Below the pieces are notes generated by a model that saw nothing but the letters and a program-made list of their open reading frames with translations, did not search any database and was not told the origin of the DNA. Positions 54,885 through 64,000 of a stretch of 64,000 bases of DNA are shown here, one piece after another. A program made the translations under genes and the position numbers. Numbering within the stretch: position 1 is the first letter of the stretch; the number at the start of each line of letters is the position of its first letter. The DNA comes from Bacteroidia bacterium (GTDB lineage: Bacteria > Bacteroidota > Bacteroidia > JADZBD01): assembly GCA_020054095.1 (NCBI GenBank), contig JAGVMA010000068.1, forward strand, positions 10,913-74,912. The letters are read 5' to 3'.

Positions 54885-56444
54885 TTAGTTTTTGTTTATT
54901 GCTTTAAATATTGTTACGTTTTTTGTTTTTTTCACTTCCTCTAAATTATAATTAGAAAACAAATTAAACAAAATTTTTTTTTGCGTAGGTAAGTAGAAAA
55001 ATCTATTCTCGGCAAATATATATAGATTATCAACAGTGCCTTTGTAATTGTAATGTGTCCACCCATATTTTACGCCCACCGAATAGGTTTCTAAACTAAC
55101 CATTTGTCGGTTATTTTTTATTGTATTGGCGGCTTCGGGGCTGGTTACGTAAAATAAATTATTACCGGTTTTTAGCGAATCATCTAATCGTTTTAATTCT
55201 GCTAAAGCATCTTTGTCGTAGTAGTTGTATGCGAATCCATCCGATTGGGCCAAGTTTTTATTTACTATTAGTTTTTTATATGAGAATGTAGCAATGCCAT
55301 AAGTGGCTATTAAAATAATTCCGGCAAATGCAATTGTTTTTTTTCGGTTAAATATTTCTTGAAATCCGATGCATAAAATGGGTATGAATAGTATGCTGTA
55401 AAATCTAAAATGCCTGTATGTGTAGTCCATCCAATTTTCTTTTATAGAAAATAAAAAATATGCTAATGCAAATACGGTGTAAAAACATACGAAAAGTAAA
55501 ACCAAATCGTGATGGTTTTTTAATTTGTTTTTTAATAATAGAAGAATTAAAACTACCGCTACGCTTATCAGAAAGAAGACAAATGGCTTCATGGCAAAAT
55601 ATGTTTCTCTTATTTTGCTTGGTATTGATTCGTCTTCTATGTCGGATAAATTGATGATGCTTGCAAGAGGTGCTGCAGAAGCAACAAAACTGTTTTCAAG
55701 TTTTGTATGTTTGTAAATGCCTCCTTTTAGTTGAGATGAGTCAACTCCTTTATTTTGAAATGTTATTTTAAATGCACCAAATGCAATTAAAAATGGTATT
55801 GCATATATACAAGCGACTGTAATTCTTTTTTCTTTAAACTTTTTGTAGGCAAAAAACAAAATTGTTGCAGCGCATGCTATCAGTAGAGATAATTTTATCA
55901 TTATCATCAAAAATGTGCATGCGGAAATTATTAAAACCGAAACAATTGTTATTCTCTCTAACCTAAACATAATTAATGCATACCAAGGTAACGAAGCAAA
56001 TGCAAGCATTTCGCCCATTCCTAAATTGTAAAAATTAGTATTAAAATTAGAGCGATTGGTAATAAGTAGCAGCAGGGTAAGCCACACATACAACTCAGGT
56101 ACATTAAATTTTCTCAATAATTTATACATACCTATTAGCCCAAACACAAGGCATATTATTACAACTATTAAATAGGAATTGCCAGCGGAGAATCCAATCT
56201 TGAAAAACAGATATGGAATTAAATAATGTGCAGGCGACCAGGTGGAAATAAATACTTCTTTATCTAATGCTATATTCTCACCCGTTGGTTGGCTAATGCA
56301 GTTAAACGCTCCGCCATTTTCAATATTTTTTATACACATAAGCCCAACTGCTGTATCCTCGCTCAGGGCAATTGGGCTTATAATGTTTACTATTGAATAG
56401 TAAAAACAAATAATAACTACCAGCCATTTTAATGTTTTTACCAT
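54885..56444 (-). CDS. Hypothetical polytopic membrane protein, possibly a glycosyltransferase-39-like or EPS-related membrane protein
   Basis: 519 aa with at least 10 predicted TM helices. No assignable motif. Confidence 0.45.
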   Translation of the reverse strand: MVKTLKWLVVIICFYYSIVNIISPIALSEDTAVGLMCIKNIENGGAFNCISQPTGENIALDKEVFISTWSPAHYLIPYLFFKIGFSAGNSYLIVVIICLVFGLIGMYKLLRKFNVPELYVWLTLLLLITNRSNFNTNFYNLGMGEMLAFASLPWYALIMFRLERITIVSVLIISACTFLMIMIKLSLLIACAATILFFAYKKFKEKRITVACIYAIPFLIAFGAFKITFQNKGVDSSQLKGGIYKHTKLENSFVASAAPLASIINLSDIEDESIPSKIRETYFAMKPFVFFLISVAVVLILLLLKNKLKNHHDLVLLFVCFYTVFALAYFLFSIKENWMDYTYRHFRFYSILFIPILCIGFQEIFNRKKTIAFAGIILIATYGIATFSYKKLIVNKNLAQSDGFAYNYYDKDALAELKRLDDSLKTGNNLFYVTSPEAANTIKNNRQMVSLETYSVGVKYGWTHYNYKGTVDNLYIFAENRFFYLPTQKKILFNLFSNYNLEEVKKTKNVTIFKAINKN

Positions 56445-56477: not shown

Positions 56478-57749
56478 TTAAGCGAATAGCTTGTATTTTT
56501 TCATCATCACATTCACTTTTTTTCTGATGTCTTTCAATTTAGTGTCGTTAGCTCGGTTCATCAAGGCAGCGTCAAATAAATCAACAACTTTTATTATTTC
56601 TTTTTCTTTTAAACCGCGTGTAGTAATTGCAGCAGTGCCAACGCGCACACCTGATGTAACAAATGGTGATTTATCATCAAACGGAACCATGTTTTTATTT
56701 ACTGTTATATCCGCTTTTCCTAAAATAGCTTCCGCCTCTTTGCCTGTGATATTTTTTGTGCGTAGGTCAATCAGCATACAGTGGTTTTCTGTTCCGCCTG
56801 AAATTACATTGTAGCCCTTATCTATAAAACACTTAGCCATTACAGCTGCATTTTTTTTCACCTGCAGTGTATATTTCATAAAGCTGTTATCAAGTGCTTC
56901 GCCAAATGCAATTGCTTTTGCAGCAATTACATGCTCAAGCGGGCCGCCTTGTGTGCCGGGGAAAACAGCAGCATCAAGCAATGCCGACATCATTTTAATT
57001 TCTCCTTTTGGAGTTGTTAATCCCCATGGATTAGGAAAATCTTTTCCCATCATTATTACACCGCCTCGTGGGCCACGCAATGTTTTGTGTGTGGTGCTGG
57101 TAACAATGTGGCAATGTGGAAGCGGGTCGTTTAACAATCCTCTGGCAATTAAACCGGCCGGATGCGAAATATCTGCCATCAAGAGTGCATTTATTTTGTC
57201 GGCAATCTTGCGTAAGCGAACATAATCCCAATCGCGAGAATATGATGATGCGCCACAAATAATGAGTTTTGGTTTTTCTTTTAATGCAGTAGCTTCTACT
57301 TTATTGTAATCAATTTTCCCGGTTTCTTTTTCTACTCCATAAAAAGTTGGGCGGTAAAGTTTACCCGAAAAATTTACCGGTGAGCCATGTGTTAAGTGCC
57401 CTCCGTGCGATAAATCAAAACCTAAAATAGTATCGCCCGGTTTTAAAACAGCAAGCATAACTGCTGCGTTTGCTTGTGCGCCTGAATGTGGCTGCACATT
57501 TCCCCACTCGGCATTAAACAATGATTTTAATCTGTCAATAGCTAATTGTTCTACTTTATCCACCACTTCGCAACCGCCATAATATCTTTTTCCCGGTAAT
57601 CCTTCGGCATATTTATTTGTAAGTACCGAGCCCATTGCTTTCATCACTTGGTCGCTCACATAATTTTCTGATGCAATTAACTCGATGCCATATTTTTGGC
57701 GATGAGTTTCCTCTTTAATGTAGTCAAAAATCAATTTGTCTTTTTTCAT
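56478..57749 (-). CDS. glyA: Serine hydroxymethyltransferase
   Basis: PLP-Lys region ([15 protein letters not shown]) and full-length SHMT pattern. Confidence 0.95.
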
Positions 57750-57801: not shown

Positions 57802-58290
57802 TTATTCGTGGTTGTTTTTCGATGCGCTGTCGAGTTTGAAAAGTGGAATGAGGATAAACATCATAATGGGCGATTGCAGCCAGCCCATAAACCACCGTGG
57901 AAACTTATATGCCATTTCAATATTGCCAAATAGTTTAAGTACCCCGAACAATAGTAGTGCGAAAACGACAATTCCGCCATGTGCTATTAGTGTCCATTTC
58001 AGGTATTTAGAAGCAATAAATATGTGCTTTATAACCAAATAGGTGGCTGTAAAGTAAAGCAAGCAAAAAATGGCAGTAAGTACCCATTTTGAAATAAAAA
58101 GTGTTACGTAAGAGTAGTTTTCAATAAATTTTAAATCGGGTGAAATAACATAGTCAAATGTATTGTTGTAATATAACTGAGATAAACGGAAGTTAATATT
58201 GAGAAAAACATGGTCTCTGAAATAACCTAAAAGTATAATATAGGCAGCTATTATAAAAAAAAACAGGTATTTATTTTTTATTGTCGGCAT
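57802..58290 (-). CDS. Exosortase F system-associated membrane protein (XrtF partner, TIGR04127-like)
   Basis: 162-aa protein with four TM helices, overlapping the 3' end of the exosortase gene by 20 bp. The size, context and orientation match the XrtF-associated family. The assignment rests mainly on context. Confidence 0.5.
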   Translation of the reverse strand: MPTIKNKYLFFFIIAAYIILLGYFRDHVFLNINFRLSQLYYNNTFDYVISPDLKFIENYSYVTLFISKWVLTAIFCLLYFTATYLVIKHIFIASKYLKWTLIAHGGIVVFALLLFGVLKLFGNIEMAYKFPRWFMGWLQSPIMMFILIPLFKLDSASKNNHE

Positions 58291-58834
58291 CAGTATCTGC
58301 TTTTTTAGAGAATATTGATTTGGCGAATTTATTTACCCAAACCATCCAAAGAAAAAATATAAAGCCGTAAATTAAAATATAAAATGTGTAATTGTGATTA
58401 AACTCGAGGTATGCCGGTGCTTTTAAAACGATAATGCAAAGTATTGTAACACGAATAATATTTAAAATGTGGATGAGAAGTATGCCTAACGGGATAAACC
58501 ACAGTTTCTTCTTTATAGGTCCGGGAAATGCAACAACAAATATTGTAAACAGCGAAAAGAGTGCAATGCCGTTGCATGGATCGCCAATCCAAAGACCATG
58601 TGTGCCGTCTATTCCTACTGTTCTTATCGTGTCGCTCTTAGCAGTGAAGGGCTGGTATCCTAATAAATAGAGTAGGTGAGAGGTGAAATAAACGGTATTG
58701 TTAATTGCGATGCTGTCTAATTTGCCAGATGGATGCAACAAAAATTCATAAAGGAAGTACCAGCACAAATAAAGTATTGAGAAAAAAACTAAAAAACGCG
58801 GAATTGGGTTTTTAGGAATTATGCTAAATGACAT
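58271..58834 (-). CDS. xrtF: Exosortase family protein XrtF (short Bacteroidota exosortase)
   Basis: 187-aa polytopic membrane protein with the exosortase catalytic-type motif (WIGDPCNGIALFSLF, Cys in a CxG context) and the conserved Arg helix (NIIRVTIL). Its start abuts the stop of the small ORF upstream. Confidence 0.7.
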   Translation of the reverse strand: MSFSIIPKNPIPRFLVFFSILYLCWYFLYEFLLHPSGKLDSIAINNTVYFTSHLLYLLGYQPFTAKSDTIRTVGIDGTHGLWIGDPCNGIALFSLFTIFVVAFPGPIKKKLWFIPLGILLIHILNIIRVTILCIIVLKAPAYLEFNHNYTFYILIYGFIFFLWMVWVNKFAKSIFSKKADTDADNKK

Positions 58835-59077
58835 TTAAGCTGAAACTTCGCTTTCGTTCGATTTGTTTTTACGAGAATCGTATAATTTCTTACCACCGTA
58901 CGCTACACCGGCAGCAATAAGCAAACTCACACCTCCATCAATTGGAACACATGGCGGTGGCCAGCATGGCGGGCCCATTGGCGGACCCATTGGCGGACCC
59001 ATTGCGGCAAATGAGTTAATACTCGATAAAAGTATAAGCGATAGTGTAGTATATAAGTAAATAAGCCTATTGTTCAT
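58835..59077 (-). CDS. Small secreted Pro-rich protein (MGPP x3) with a PEP-CTERM-like C-terminal tail: candidate XrtF substrate
   Basis: Sequence: signal peptide (MNNRLIYLYTTLSLILLSSINSFA), then AMGPPMGPPMGPPCWPPPCVPIDGG, then a hydrophobic helix (VSLLIAAGVAYGG), then a basic cluster (KKLYDSRKNK). It is 11 bp downstream of the large T9SS gene and has zero gap to xrtF. Confidence 0.55.
   Translation of the reverse strand: MNNRLIYLYTTLSLILLSSINSFAAMGPPMGPPMGPPCWPPPCVPIDGGVSLLIAAGVAYGGKKLYDSRKNKSNESEVSA
58974..59009 (-). repeat. 12-bp x3 tandem repeat (cccattggcgga on the + strand) encoding (MGPP)3
   Basis: Three contiguous 12-mers at 58974-58985, 58986-58997 and 58998-59009. The third differs by 2 bases. 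Confidence 0.85.
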
Positions 59078-59088
59078 TATAAATTTTG

Positions 59089-62000
59089 TTATTTGTTTAT
59101 TACAATTTTGCGTGTTAAGGTACTATTGTTTACATTAATGTTTACAAAATAAACCCCCGCAGTTTCAATGTTGATATCCACCGCTTGTTTAAATGCGCTA
59201 ATGTTTTTTGTTGAGATTAACTCACCAATTGCATTGTAAACGGTGTAGCTAACATTGGTTAGCTCATCAAGATTAAACTGAATTTGCGGATTTGCAGAAC
59301 CATTGCTGTTTACACTTATCATGTTTTCGGAAACCGGCTTTTGTAGTTTTGAGGTTACATCAACACAGTTTGCGTTTTCGCTAATAAGGTGTAAAACAAA
59401 TCTATTTTGGTCGTCATCAACTTTTGCATCAAACGAATAAATTTGATTGTCTTTCAAGTTAACTCTAGTGCCCAATTGTAAATCCTCTAAAATTATACAC
59501 GAGTATTGTGCAGCATTTTCGATACCCGAAAGAGTTATGCTGTAATTACCATCAAAACCAATTTTAGTTTTAAGTGCTATTACATCGTGCTGTGTTGGAG
59601 CAAAGGTGTTGCGTGTGGTAAGAATGTTGTCAGCGCCTATCATACAGATGCTTGGGGCTAATTTTACGGGAGTTTTTACATAACGCGCATCAAGTCCTAA
59701 ATCATAATTCTTTGTCGCATTTTCATCAAAATTGATGCTTATTTCGTGCCAATAGTCTGTTCCTTTTCCGGTTAGTTTTAGTCTTAAACCATAAGTTGGT
59801 TGTACTATTCTATTGAACGCACTTGATGTGGATGTTGTTTTTGATGATTGTTCAAAATCAACAAAAGCACCAGCGCCCAGTGCATATACAAAAAAACCTT
59901 GCATTGGTGGGATGCTCACAGAACCGGTAAAGGAATTATAGTTGCCATTGTTATCAAGCATATAAAATGTTGGGTCAACATTAAATGTAGTAAGTAGGCT
60001 AAAATCAACATGTGAATGGAAAGGGTTACTGATAAGATTTGCGCCAGGATCAGCACTTGCAGAAAAAGTGAGGTTTGCGGTTTGTGTGCCGCTATTTGGT
60101 GTCCCTCTTGTATCTAGAGAACGCGTAGCAGTCCACGTAGTTAAATCATCACCCAAAAATATTTGATAGCCAACCGTAGGAGTTAAAGAAGTGCTTACGG
60201 ATGTAACTGCTACATAATCTGCCGCTGCTTCATCATAAGTAGTAACCGATTGAAAAGTAGGGCAGCAGGCATCACCATCCGGGCCACCCACACCGCTCAT
60301 GTACATTTCATTCGTAACTGATCCGTCCCAATCAGATAATGTTGAACTCGTTACTGCCGATCCGAAATCGTGCCAGTTAGCAGGTCGAGATGAAATGAAG
60401 CGCTGTAAAATAAATGTGCCGAAAAAAGTTCCGCTACCGCTGCCTATAATTGCAGTTTTAGTAGCATTTGATACCAAAGTAATTGTACCACCTGTATTTT
60501 GGAACATTCCTAAAGTTGGGGTTATTGAATTTGTAATAGTGTATGTTCCTGTAGTGGTTCTGATCCCAACTCCGGTGCAGTTTACGGTAAGATCGTAGAA
60601 TGTTGTGGCAACAGTAGCGGTTACTAATTGTAAGCCCGATGCTCTGTTAAAAGTAAAGTTTCCGCTTCTGGAATTTAAAGTAGCATTAAAAGCAGTATTT
60701 CCTGCAATAGTTACGGAATGGTTAGAAGTGCTCACATCAAACGTGCCGGCAGTTAAAGTAAATGTTCCGGTACATGTTATGGCTGAGCCAAGAGTAACCG
60801 AGCCACCAGCAGTTTTGTTCATTACAAAATTATTATATGTCTCACCACCGATTGCTGTAAGTGTACGAGTACCTGTATTAATCATATTCACTGTTCCGTT
60901 GCCTCCGGAGAATGTGCCCGCTGTACGAGACCAATTGCCATTGACAAAAATGGTTGATGAAGTTGATCCACCGTCAAGTGTACCCCCGGTAATTGTCATA
61001 TTGCCTGTCAGAGCGATGCTCGAATTTACAGTTGCAGTACCTGCATTCTGTTTTATAACATTGGCAAAAGTTTCAGGGGGGCTAGTTTTAGATATTGTTT
61101 GAGTACCGGATGTGGCTTGAAAAATAACAGTCCCATTTCGAGGCGTAAATGTGCCACCTGTATTATCCCAATTGCCAGAAATATATATCGCACGATTTGC
61201 GGTACTTGCGTCAAATGTCCCTGAGTTAATTGTGATACTCCCGGTTACCTGAATATTGCAACCCATCAAAACCGTACCTGATGAGGCGATAGTTAAATTT
61301 GTGAAATTCTCTTGTGCAGATTTGTTGATGTTTTGAGTGCTGCTACCATTAAATGTAACTGCCGCATTACTTGTGTTACCTATACCAACACCGTTCGTCC
61401 AATTGCCTGCAACAGACAAAAGAAAACCATTCCCATTGTATGAAGGTGAACCAGCAGCATTGATGGTGAAATTTCCATTTACTTGTGTATTTGCAAGTAG
61501 TGCCTTGGTGCCTGCATTGGAAAGCGATAAATGATGGTATGTGTTTCCGGCAGCAGCAAAAATACCTGCTGACGATGAGTAGGTTACTGTATTGGGATTA
61601 GCCGTTGCTGTAAGAGTTCCGCCCGAAGATGTAACACTTGTTGATAAAAGTAAAGACGCATTAGTATTATTTATGAAATTAGAACCGCTGGCTAATGTTA
61701 ATGAACCACCAACAAGATTTATAGTTCCGTTATTGGTTACAGTAACACCGGTATTAAGTATAATATTGCCCGCTTTAGTTATTGTGGTTGCGTTATTAAT
61801 AGTACCAGTACCGGCAAAAGTATAGTTGCCCGATGATGAAAACGCTCCACTTCCGCTTAACAAATGGCCTGTTCCGGAAAAAGAAATAGCGCCCGAACCA
61901 TTTAAAGTGCCTGCAACATTCAAAGTGCGCATTATGGTGATAGTGGTATTTAAACTTAATGTACCACCTACTTGTACATTTGCTGCTAAACATGAACCAC

Positions 62001-62184
62001 CATAAAAAAACATAGTATGTCCTGCTTGTATAACCACTGAGTCGGCTGCTGTAGGAACTTGTGCAGGGCTCCAAGCAGATGCAAAATGCCAAGTGCCTGA
62101 TGCTGCTACCGAAGTAAGTGTAACCGCAAACATATTTGAAGCAGACAGTACAGAAATAGCGAGGGAAATGTATAATTTTTTCAT
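59089..62184 (-). CDS. Large T9SS-secreted surface protein with Gly/Thr/Asn/Ser-rich beta-helix-like repeats (adhesin-like)
   Basis: Signal peptide. ~700 aa of degenerate G/T/N/S-rich repeats (...TGTxT..N.T...). C-terminal T9SS tail (NVSYTVYNAIGELI...GVYFVNI). Antisense ORFs on the + strand there are artefacts of the repeat composition. Confidence 0.75.
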   Translation of the reverse strand: MKKLYISLAISVLSASNMFAVTLTSVAASGTWHFASAWSPAQVPTAADSVVIQAGHTMFFYGGSCLAANVQVGGTLSLNTTITIMRTLNVAGTLNGSGAISFSGTGHLLSGSGAFSSSGNYTFAGTGTINNATTITKAGNIILNTGVTVTNNGTINLVGGSLTLASGSNFINNTNASLLLSTSVTSSGGTLTATANPNTVTYSSSAGIFAAAGNTYHHLSLSNAGTKALLANTQVNGNFTINAAGSPSYNGNGFLLSVAGNWTNGVGIGNTSNAAVTFNGSSTQNINKSAQENFTNLTIASSGTVLMGCNIQVTGSITINSGTFDASTANRAIYISGNWDNTGGTFTPRNGTVIFQATSGTQTISKTSPPETFANVIKQNAGTATVNSSIALTGNMTITGGTLDGGSTSSTIFVNGNWSRTAGTFSGGNGTVNMINTGTRTLTAIGGETYNNFVMNKTAGGSVTLGSAITCTGTFTLTAGTFDVSTSNHSVTIAGNTAFNATLNSRSGNFTFNRASGLQLVTATVATTFYDLTVNCTGVGIRTTTGTYTITNSITPTLGMFQNTGGTITLVSNATKTAIIGSGSGTFFGTFILQRFISSRPANWHDFGSAVTSSTLSDWDGSVTNEMYMSGVGGPDGDACCPTFQSVTTYDEAAADYVAVTSVSTSLTPTVGYQIFLGDDLTTWTATRSLDTRGTPNSGTQTANLTFSASADPGANLISNPFHSHVDFSLLTTFNVDPTFYMLDNNGNYNSFTGSVSIPPMQGFFVYALGAGAFVDFEQSSKTTSTSSAFNRIVQPTYGLRLKLTGKGTDYWHEISINFDENATKNYDLGLDARYVKTPVKLAPSICMIGADNILTTRNTFAPTQHDVIALKTKIGFDGNYSITLSGIENAAQYSCIILEDLQLGTRVNLKDNQIYSFDAKVDDDQNRFVLHLISENANCVDVTSKLQKPVSENMISVNSNGSANPQIQFNLDELTNVSYTVYNAIGELISTKNISAFKQAVDINIETAGVYFVNINVNNSTLTRKIVINK

Positions 62185-62384: not shown

Positions 62385-64000
62385 ATGTTTTTATGGCGCA
62401 TCGTCAAAAAAAACTGGTACATCGTTCTTATATGTGCAAGCTTGGCATACGTTATCGCCTACTTTTATGTTTTTAAATTAACTGATATTTATCAGGCAAA
62501 AACCGAGTTGCTTCTCAAAACCAATGAAGAATACAATCCCAGCAGTGTAATCTCCGAAAACTATGGTGGTTACTATTCATCATATATTGATAACTCAAAT
62601 GAAATAAGAATAATACAGTCATACGATTTGATAAAGCAGGCAATTAATTGCCTCAATATGAATGTGTCTTATTTTGTTGTAGGCAGAATAAGAACTACAG
62701 AAGTTTATGAAGGAATCCCATTTGAAGTGAAAATTGTGAATATTAATCCACAGTTTTACCAAGCGCCTTTTAAATTTAAAGTAATAAATACTAACGAATA
62801 TAAATTAGAATACCTCTCGAATGGCAAAGAGGTGGTGATCCAAAACCAGTTTAATAAAGAATTGGTTACCAACGATTTCATCTTTAATATCATCAAAAAA
62901 GAATCAATTAACGAGCGTACGATAAAAGATTTTGTGAAAATCGAATACCTTTTTACGGCTCATAGTGAAACTGCGCTTGTATATAAATTTATGTCAGGCA
63001 TAAAAGTAGAAAACCCTGACTATACAAACATACTTCGTATTACACTTGAGGATGTAATTCCACAAAGAGCAATTGTTTTTTTAGACACACTTGCGCAAGT
63101 TTATATGCGAAACAGTTTAAAATCCGAATTCGAAATAAACGAAAAAACGCTTACATATATTAATAAACAAATGGAAGAAATATCTTTTATGCTTGATAAC
63201 ATAGAAGATACTATGCAGAACTATAAAGAGATAAAAGACATTGTGGATTTTGGAATGCAAAAGAATGACTACTACTCTAAGTTCGCTAAGTACGACAACG
63301 AAAAATCAAATTTAATACTCGAGCAGCAGGCGCTTCTTGATTTAGAAGATTACATAATAAAGAATAAAGATCCTGAATTATTGCCACCATCGGTTTATAT
63401 TTCAACTAACGATATTTTTTTGGAAGGAAGAGTGGGCGAACTTTATGCACTCCAGCTTAGTAGAATTAGCGCATTGTCTTCTGCCACGCTTGAAAGCCCT
63501 GTTTTGAAGGAAATAGATGCAAAAATTACCAAACTTAAAGGTAATTTACTCACCTATATATCCAATCTTAAAGTAGCTCTCAGTAATAAAATGAATGACA
63601 TAAATGGTCGCATTGATAATTACATAGGCAATATAAAAACACTTCCACAAAAAGAACGAGACATTACAAATATTCAGAGAAAACTACAGGTGAATGAAAA
63701 CCTGTATTTATTTCTATTGCAAAAAAGAGCAAACACAACTATTGCAAAAGCCGGTATAATTCCTCAAATACGGGTTATAGAATTTGCCCGCTCAATGGGA
63801 GTAGTGAAACCCGACAGAAAAAAAATCACTAATAACTTTCTCATTTTTGGTGCTGTTTTAGGTTTGCTAATTGTTTTGATGCGTGTAATTTTCTTTGATA
63901 AAATAGAGAGTGTAGCCGAATTAAAACAGAAAACACATTTACCTGTTATTGGCGAAGTATTATTTGCGCCATCCATTAAAGAACTTGTGATAGCAGTTGA
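62385..64000 (+). CDS. Polysaccharide chain-length determinant / tyrosine autokinase (Wzc/GumC family), 3'-truncated by the window end
   Basis: Not in the ORF track because there is no stop in the window. ATG at 62385, then TM1 (WYIVLICASLAYVIAYFYV), a ~400-aa periplasmic coiled-coil Wzz domain, TM2 (FLIFGAVLGLLIVLMRVIFF), then the start of the kinase domain (LPVIGEV). Confidence 0.7.
   Translation, partial: MFLWRIVKKNWYIVLICASLAYVIAYFYVFKLTDIYQAKTELLLKTNEEYNPSSVISENYGGYYSSYIDNSNEIRIIQSYDLIKQAINCLNMNVSYFVVGRIRTTEVYEGIPFEVKIVNINPQFYQAPFKFKVINTNEYKLEYLSNGKEVVIQNQFNKELVTNDFIFNIIKKESINERTIKDFVKIEYLFTAHSETALVYKFMSGIKVENPDYTNILRITLEDVIPQRAIVFLDTLAQVYMRNSLKSEFEINEKTLTYINKQMEEISFMLDNIEDTMQNYKEIKDIVDFGMQKNDYYSKFAKYDNEKSNLILEQQALLDLEDYIIKNKDPELLPPSVYISTNDIFLEGRVGELYALQLSRISALSSATLESPVLKEIDAKITKLKGNLLTYISNLKVALSNKMNDINGRIDNYIGNIKTLPQKERDITNIQRKLQVNENLYLFLLQKRANTTIAKAGIIPQIRVIEFARSMGVVKPDRKKITNNFLIFGAVLGLLIVLMRVIFFDKIESVAELKQKTHLPVIGEVLFAPSIKELVIAV

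Follow-up and report, generated by a model that had tools for sequence, protein, structure and literature searches.

The cleavage of C-terminal sorting signals has its established models in the PEP-CTERM/exosortase and the PGF-CTERM/archaeosortase A systems. To our knowledge, neither a substrate nor a product has been demonstrated for any exosortase of the XrtF/XrtX/XrtY group. Flavobacterium johnsoniae requires XrtF together with its partner to form biofilms and to colonise surfaces (PMC10936215), and the targets of XrtF are reported to be unknown (bioRxiv 10.1101/2024.12.02.626408). Dedicated sorting systems, in which the genes of the enzyme and the target are consecutive, have also been described (Haft, bioRxiv 10.1101/2023.06.07.544157). 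In this study, we analysed a stretch of 64,000 nucleotides (hereafter, the window) from contig JAGVMA010000068.1 of an uncultured Bacteroidota bacterium, which carries a gene for a mini-protein of 80 amino acids (aa) next to the genes for a 187-aa exosortase and a 162-aa membrane protein. The best explanation, which we consider probable, is that these genes form a dedicated exosortase X (XrtX)/PID-CTERM sorting cassette, and the assignment of the cassette to that family is almost certain on comparison with curated models. The pairing of PID-CTERM with XrtX is already recorded in NCBIfam and Pfam, and our finding is thus a correct rediscovery.

The three genes lie on the minus strand and were found in the open reading frame (ORF) list of the window to be arranged in a tight tandem, in the order of the mini-protein gene (58835-59077), the exosortase gene (58271-58834), and the gene for the 162-aa polytopic membrane protein (57802-58290). 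The TAA codon of the mini-protein gene directly abuts the ATG codon of XrtX with 0 intergenic bases, and the partner gene overlaps the exosortase gene by 20 bp. This anatomy and its coordinates had been given in a first-pass annotation of the window, and they agree with both the ORF list and the sequence. A scan for sigma-70 promoters and terminators, for which the consensus is ill-suited to Bacteroidota, gave counts equal to the shuffled background.

The family of the enzyme was assigned by NCBIfam release 20 at its curated cut-offs. The 187-aa protein scored 192.2 bits against NF046081 (exosortase X; cut-off of 170), which was the best of the exosortase models, and 53.7 bits against TIGR04178, the exosortase/archaeosortase signature (cut-off of 23), being thus an exosortase by two profile hidden Markov models (HMMs), as the first-pass annotation had supposed. 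The score was 56.2 bits against the XrtY model, and the protein failed TIGR02602 (15.6 vs 105.55) and PF09721 (21.6 vs 25.7). In the reading of the first-pass annotation, the small ORF encodes the previously undefined substrate of an XrtF enzyme, thereby filling the place of the missing XrtF target. This could be argued from the score of 99.9 bits against TIGR04128 (XrtF), which is just over the cut-off of 90, from the name given by JGI to the identical protein (exosortase family protein XrtF), and from the report that the targets of XrtF are unknown. It is hardly credible, however, when it is considered that the NF046081 score is 92 bits above that of TIGR04128, that seven other exosortases adjoining PID-CTERM genes scored 78-87 bits against TIGR04128 and were under its cut-off, that the partner protein matches NF046082 but not TIGR04127, as described below, and that a definition of the sorting signal, PID-CTERM, already exists. 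Of those seven PID-linked exosortases, six are full-length, five of which passed the XrtX cut-off, and the seventh is a partial protein. The name that NCBI gives to the homologues is exosortase X. The enzyme is, as judged by profile comparison, exosortase X, a sister family of XrtF, since NF046081 (192.2 bits) outscores TIGR04128 (99.9 bits) and the partner matches the model that belongs to XrtX; the label xrtF corresponds to the older, TIGRFAM-based naming at JGI. Because the enzyme is exosortase X, the locus does not supply the missing XrtF substrate.

The residues C87 (in WIGDPCNG), N125, R128, and H147 of XrtX were invariant in 80/80 and 53/53 homologues. Three of them, Cys87 (58574-58576), Arg128 (58451-58453), and His147 (58394-58396), are putative catalytic residues, a role that we take from what is known of the family; XrtX thus retains the Cys, Arg, and His that do not vary in exosortases and archaeosortases. 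In the AlphaFold2 model of XrtX, which had a predicted local distance difference test (pLDDT) score of 90.7, five long helices were observed, and a small sheet of three strands immediately precedes Cys87. No meaningful match was obtained by the sequence search of the PDB or by the Foldseek search with the model, and the tblastn search of XrtX against plasmids gave no match.

The alignment of the 162-aa protein with NF046082, the model of XrtX-associated membrane proteins, was full length (positions 3-146 of 147; E value of 1.4e-13), and no match to TIGR04127 was found at E ≤ 1. Similarly, 75 of the 76 positional orthologues matched NF046082, the best E value being 2e-20, and there was only one weak match (E 2e-4) to TIGR04127 among the 76. 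The designation of this protein as XrtF-associated in the first-pass annotation is accordingly replaced. By the curated rule the protein is not an equivalog; the profile matches show instead a homologue that has diverged from the XrtX-associated membrane protein and is orthologous to it by position.

The mini-protein has the sequence MNNRLIYLYTTLSLILLSSINSFAA/MGPPMGPPMGPPCWPPPC/VPIDGGVSLLIAAGVAYGGKKLYDSRKNK/SNESEVSA, and its hydropathy maxima are at residues 5-20 and 45-59. The first part (residues 1-25; 59003-59077, minus strand) is a predicted Sec signal peptide, MNNRLIYLYTTLSLILLSSINSFA, consisting of MNNR, a hydrophobic core, and SFA, with Ala as the next residue; the same n-h-c pattern with an A-x-A-like end recurs across the homologues. 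The core, MGPPMGPPMGPPCWPPPC, follows, in which (MGPP)3 and then CWPPPC (residues 26-43; 58949-59002, minus strand) make up nearly the whole of the predicted mature peptide. The (MGPP)3 segment is encoded by a 12-bp tandem repeat, which was detected by Tandem Repeats Finder at 58967-59004 with 3.2 copies and 96% matches and is in perfect frame. Because the number of xGPP units differs among the homologues, slippage of the repeat may be a source of length variation in the mature peptide. The tail, VPIDGG-VSLLIAAGVAYGG-KKLYDSRKNK, constitutes a tripartite C-terminal signal (residues 44-72; 58862-58948, minus strand), which comprises VPIDGG, the Gly/Ala-rich transmembrane (TM) helix GVSLLIAAGVAYGG, and the basic cluster KKLYDSRKNK, and it is followed by the 8-residue extension SNESEVSA. 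With this extension, which is unusually long, the copy in the window is 80 aa in length, the median of the homologues being 74.5 aa. The signal peptide, the proline-rich core, and the tripartite tail had all been pointed out in the first-pass annotation, and the tail among them is borne out by NF046080, the curated model of the PID-CTERM protein-sorting domain, against which the mini-protein scored 48.9 bits (cut-off of 26; E 3.9e-13), with residues 44-67 matched to model positions 1-24 of 25. The view that no sorting signal had been defined must be withdrawn at the same time, PID-CTERM (NF046080) being already defined for this enzyme family. The search of the mini-protein against the local copy of Pfam gave no match, and PF28310 (PID_CTERM) was seen only in the precomputed annotations of its homologues.

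The homologues of the mini-protein amounted to 173 protein clusters of 63-102 aa, which shared a common architecture and all carried PF28310. In 121 homologues, C38, C43, P45, D47, and G49 were invariant (121/121), W39 was present in 120, and each of the three prolines of CWPPPC was kept in 118-120, resulting in the near-invariant motif C-W-P-P-P-C-[VI]-P-[ILV]-D-G-G. Variants of the PID motif, P-V-N-G-G or P-V-D-N-G, were observed in a sub-clade (loci L006, L008, L010, L012, L013, L016, L020, L035, and L051), in which the tail ends in GAYALIKSLRxR instead of GGKKLYD.

The small ORF is a genuine gene and not a chance ORF, because it has these 173 homologous clusters and is syntenic in 78/78 loci, as described below. 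The identical 80-aa gene was called in two Logan assemblies, and hundreds of homologues were called in NCBI, JGI, and ENA, in contradiction to the earlier opinion that standard gene calls would miss an ORF of this length. The exact 80-aa sequence was not found in a collection of 15 billion proteins when six possible starts were tested. Both of its downstream neighbours were present in that collection, on a 143-kb NCBI/JGI contig, indicating that the 80-aa gene may be unannotated in that particular record. Two other interpretations of the ORF were rejected. It is not a spurious ORF, nor is the antisense 65-aa ORF (58863-59060) to be preferred, because the minus-strand frame, with the signal peptide, the motif, and the helix, is conserved in all homologues; it does not encode a lipoprotein, because no Cys follows the signal peptide.

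The linkage between the mini-protein and the enzyme was evaluated in 80 loci (L001-L080) around XrtX homologues with 45-69% identity in species-representative genomes. In all 78 loci that have upstream DNA, XrtX is immediately preceded by exactly one homologue of the mini-protein, which is encoded on the same strand; the remaining 2 of the 80 end at a contig edge upstream of XrtX. The stop codon of the mini-protein gene and the start codon of XrtX were separated by -11 to +30 bp in 72 of the 78, with a median of 5 bp, and the partner gene was located 3' of XrtX in 76 of the 80. The mini-protein is thus very likely a dedicated partner or substrate of the neighbouring exosortase. The first-pass annotation had proposed such a dedication to the adjacent enzyme from the single locus, and the proposal is well supported by the one-to-one occurrence (78/78) and the tight coupling (72/78).

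This pairing was also examined from the side of the sorting signal with a tail-only profile, composed of PPC, the PID motif, the helix, and the basic cluster, which was searched against 1.84 billion representative proteins; the profile consisted of the 37-aa tail and 3 extra residues, giving it a slight bias toward the Cys-containing subclass. The search yielded 1890 matches at E ≤ 1e-3. Among the best 150 of them, all but four were proteins of 36-117 aa whose tail is located at the extreme C-terminus. The four exceptions, which are 351-416 aa in length, have no PIDGG and were each matched three times through the helix/KK part only. In the window, there was only one PID tail. The XrtX/PID-CTERM system hence seems to pair one enzyme with one target and to have almost no cargo, because the tail-only search gave almost only mini-proteins of 36-117 aa. 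As to the four longer proteins (P0270, P0317, P0343, and P0375), each contains three copies of a segment like AGAAYGGKKLYD(R/K)..., which are not C-terminal and resemble the helix/basic part of the PID-CTERM tail.

Many PID-CTERM mini-proteins had no CWPPPC box and carried short acidic or Pro/Gly linkers of variable length in its place, and these mini-proteins tended to adjoin small exosortases. In the loci of the other subclasses of mini-proteins, XrtX was found in L086, L088, and L094, and an XrtY-like enzyme was found in L081. The gene order was rearranged in L084 and L093, with the partner gene being first.

The mechanism that we propose is modelled on the established C-terminal sorting systems. 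The mini-protein would be exported via Sec, and its signal peptide would be removed after SFA. It would then be retained in the inner membrane by the Gly/Ala-rich C-terminal helix, so oriented that KK..RKNK is cytoplasmic and P-I-D-G-G faces the periplasm, and Cys87 of XrtX may attack at or near the PID motif to remove the helix and the tail. The proline-rich CWPPPC peptide of about 21 residues, AMGPPMGPPMGPPCWPPPCV(P..), would subsequently be released or transferred, with a lipid, an exopolysaccharide (EPS), or another envelope component being the candidate acceptors. As for XrtX, the positive-inside rule suggests that the PGPIKKKLW loop and the C-terminal tail are cytoplasmic, in which case Cys87 and His147 would face the periplasm and Arg128 would be in the outer half of helix 4. 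The Cys87/His147 site could then be the place where P-I-D-G-G of a C-terminally anchored substrate would lie. By analogy, we are inclined to regard the mini-protein as being cleaved as the substrate of XrtX.

The peptide predicted by this mechanism brings in the possibility that the cassette yields a freely released small peptide, which could be a signal or could resemble a ribosomally synthesised and post-translationally modified peptide, with XrtX acting only as a maturation protease. The predicted product of about 21 residues has two invariant Cys residues that could form a CWPPPC loop, and the order of a precursor gene followed by a protease gene is typical of peptide maturation loci. In many mini-proteins, however, the Cys pair is missing and the linkers are variable, being acidic or Pro/Gly-rich, which argues against a specific bioactive peptide. 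Moreover, neither conserved modifying enzymes nor exporters were found at the locus, where the conserved neighbours are envelope and EPS genes. We consider such a peptide system to be very unlikely.

Several observations weigh against a dedicated XrtX/PID-CTERM cassette in which the mini-protein is cleaved. The TM helix is unusually conserved, with L53, A56, G57, G61, G62, K63, and K64 present in at least 90% of sequences, and this conservation fits a stable helix-helix partner as well as a cleaved signal. The predicted cargo is only about 20 residues of low complexity. The score of the 162-aa partner against NF046082 was 50.8 bits, under the cut-off of 75, and the best E value of 2e-20 among its 75 matching orthologues implies that most of the clade is probably under that cut-off too. 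In L087, a PID-CTERM gene was found without an adjacent exosortase on its contig of 1.4 kb. A literature search on PID-CTERM found no paper, and no experiment reporting the cleavage of a PID-CTERM protein was found; a search on XrtX or exosortase X likewise found nothing relevant.

Some of these observations would be explained if the mini-protein were not cleaved at all and were a stable single-pass subunit or a regulator (pseudo-substrate) of the complex of XrtX and its partner, the real substrates being elsewhere or not proteins. The near-invariant TM helix and juxtamembrane residues, with the Gly/Ala packing pattern AAGxAxGGKK, would be consistent with such a role, as would the tiny, low-complexity mature part and the strict 1:1 gene dosage with translational coupling. 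On the other hand, the combination of a signal peptide, a motif, a helix, and a basic cluster at the extreme C-terminus is the architecture by which cleaved sorting signals are defined, P45, D47, and G49, which vary least of all, are at the predicted cleavage face, and the curators class the tail as a sorting domain. In addition, no other class of PID-CTERM cargo was found among the best 150 representatives, and hence no alternative substrate is in sight. On balance, we regard an uncleaved subunit as rather unlikely, and the cleavage of the mini-protein by XrtX as the better account of the cassette.

The mini-protein gene is flanked upstream by a gene for a 1031-aa protein (59089-62184, minus strand), which ends 11 bp before it. 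This protein is a RemA/RemZ-like type A substrate of the type IX secretion system (T9SS), as indicated by the match of its C-terminal Por_Secre_tail to TIGR04183 (33.1 bits vs 23) and PF18962 (28.2 vs 27). Its module of about 430 aa (aa 520-960), when searched as a profile, matched RemA (E 6e-24) and RemZ (E 2e-19) of F. johnsoniae, in both cases in the region before the C-terminal domain. Of the two, RemA is the mobile adhesin of gliding, to which RemZ is homologous (PMC10994853). The module was present in 30 of the 80 XrtX loci. It was also found in homologues that adjoin the mini-protein gene at L084:3-3959 (E 3e-57), L086:1-2217 (2e-60), and L093:7-1449 (1e-44), as well as in the XrtY-like locus at L081:254-3853 (1e-9), being thus located directly 5' of mini-protein genes in deeply diverged subclasses and gene orders. 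No Pfam family covers the module, and its structure model from the single sequence had a pLDDT of only 31. The adjacency to the RemA-like protein is not part of the curated models that we saw, and it is here alone that the locus may go beyond what is already recorded.

Further upstream, a gene for a Wzc-type polysaccharide co-polymerase (Wzz and GNVR domains; PF02706 and PF13807) is divergently oriented (62385-64000, plus strand) and runs past the end of the window. A Wzc-type homologue was found upstream on the opposite strand in 67 of the 80 loci. The label Wzc-like is a fair one, because a P-loop domain of the kinase type, AAA_31, is additionally present in the full-length orthologue of L003. 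The Wzc-type and RemA-like neighbours suggest that the output of the cassette serves the cell surface or the matrix, and the EPS and T9SS character of the neighbourhood, to which the first-pass annotation had drawn attention, recurs in the related loci (67/80 and 30/80, respectively). It may further be imagined that the cassette works together with the RemA/RemZ-like adhesin and the Wzc-type EPS machinery, the transpeptidated peptide of about 20 residues being a covalent adaptor or anchor on a lipid or polysaccharide that is needed by the adhesin or the matrix, and we put this forward as an unlikely, speculative extension.

On the downstream side, glyA, encoding serine hydroxymethyltransferase (56478-57749, minus strand; PF00464, 527 bits), is located on the same strand as the cassette. 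It was found in that position in 51 of the 80 loci, and in L084 it lies between the partner and exosortase genes. It is probably outside the system, the linkage having no obvious functional reason. The next gene on this side encodes a 519-aa polytopic membrane protein (54885-56444, minus strand) and lies between glyA and a gene for an AhpC/TSA peroxiredoxin; this protein had no Pfam match, and none of the 80 related loci carries a homologue.

The present analysis indicates that reasoning from sequence alone recovered a real pairing of an enzyme and its candidate substrate, which is already recorded in NCBIfam and Pfam. A system in which one enzyme serves one target of about 20 residues would represent an unusually simple model for exploring what it is that exosortases attach their substrates to. 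Moreover, the linkage to a homologue of the RemA-like gliding adhesin and to a Wzc-type gene provides a starting point for studies of adhesion, gliding, and biofilm phenotypes. If the adaptor logic were true for XrtF too, it would explain the loss of biofilm formation and surface colonisation in the XrtF mutants of F. johnsoniae and could offer a concrete route to the target of XrtF.

In comparison with the known systems, the locus corresponds most closely to the curated PID-CTERM/XrtX system (NF046080, NF046081, NF046082, and PF28310), since all three genes match and the gene order and the Bacteroidota host are as in the 78 related loci. There is no essential difference, the distinguishing features here being the score of the partner under the cut-off and the long SNESEVSA end. 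The name that NCBI gives to the homologues of the mini-protein is already PID-CTERM protein-sorting domain-containing protein, and the three NCBIfam models and PF28310 encode the pairing, so that the novelty claimed for it by the first-pass annotation does not stand. The closest other exosortase family by HMM score is the XrtF system (TIGR04128/TIGR04127; Fjoh_1448/1449 in F. johnsoniae), which is likewise composed of a small Bacteroidota exosortase of about 175-190 aa and a downstream polytopic membrane protein. It differs in that the partner in the present locus is not of the TIGR04127 family and in that a PID-CTERM target is adjacent here, whereas the target of XrtF is unreported. The PEP-CTERM/exosortase A (XrtA, EpsH) system has the tripartite signal, the Cys/Arg/His superfamily, and the EPS genes in common with the XrtX cassette. 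In the latter, however, the motif is P-I-D-G-G and not P-E-P, one tiny target takes the place of many larger cargo proteins, and the enzyme is much smaller (187 aa). The JDVT-CTERM system with its myxosortase-like protease (Haft) is similar in having one target per strain that is co-operonic with the enzyme, and the XrtX subclass also has an invariant Cys beside the signal. Unlike that system, the present one uses an exosortase instead of an enzyme of the CPBP/myxosortase type, and the target of XrtX has almost no mature domain.

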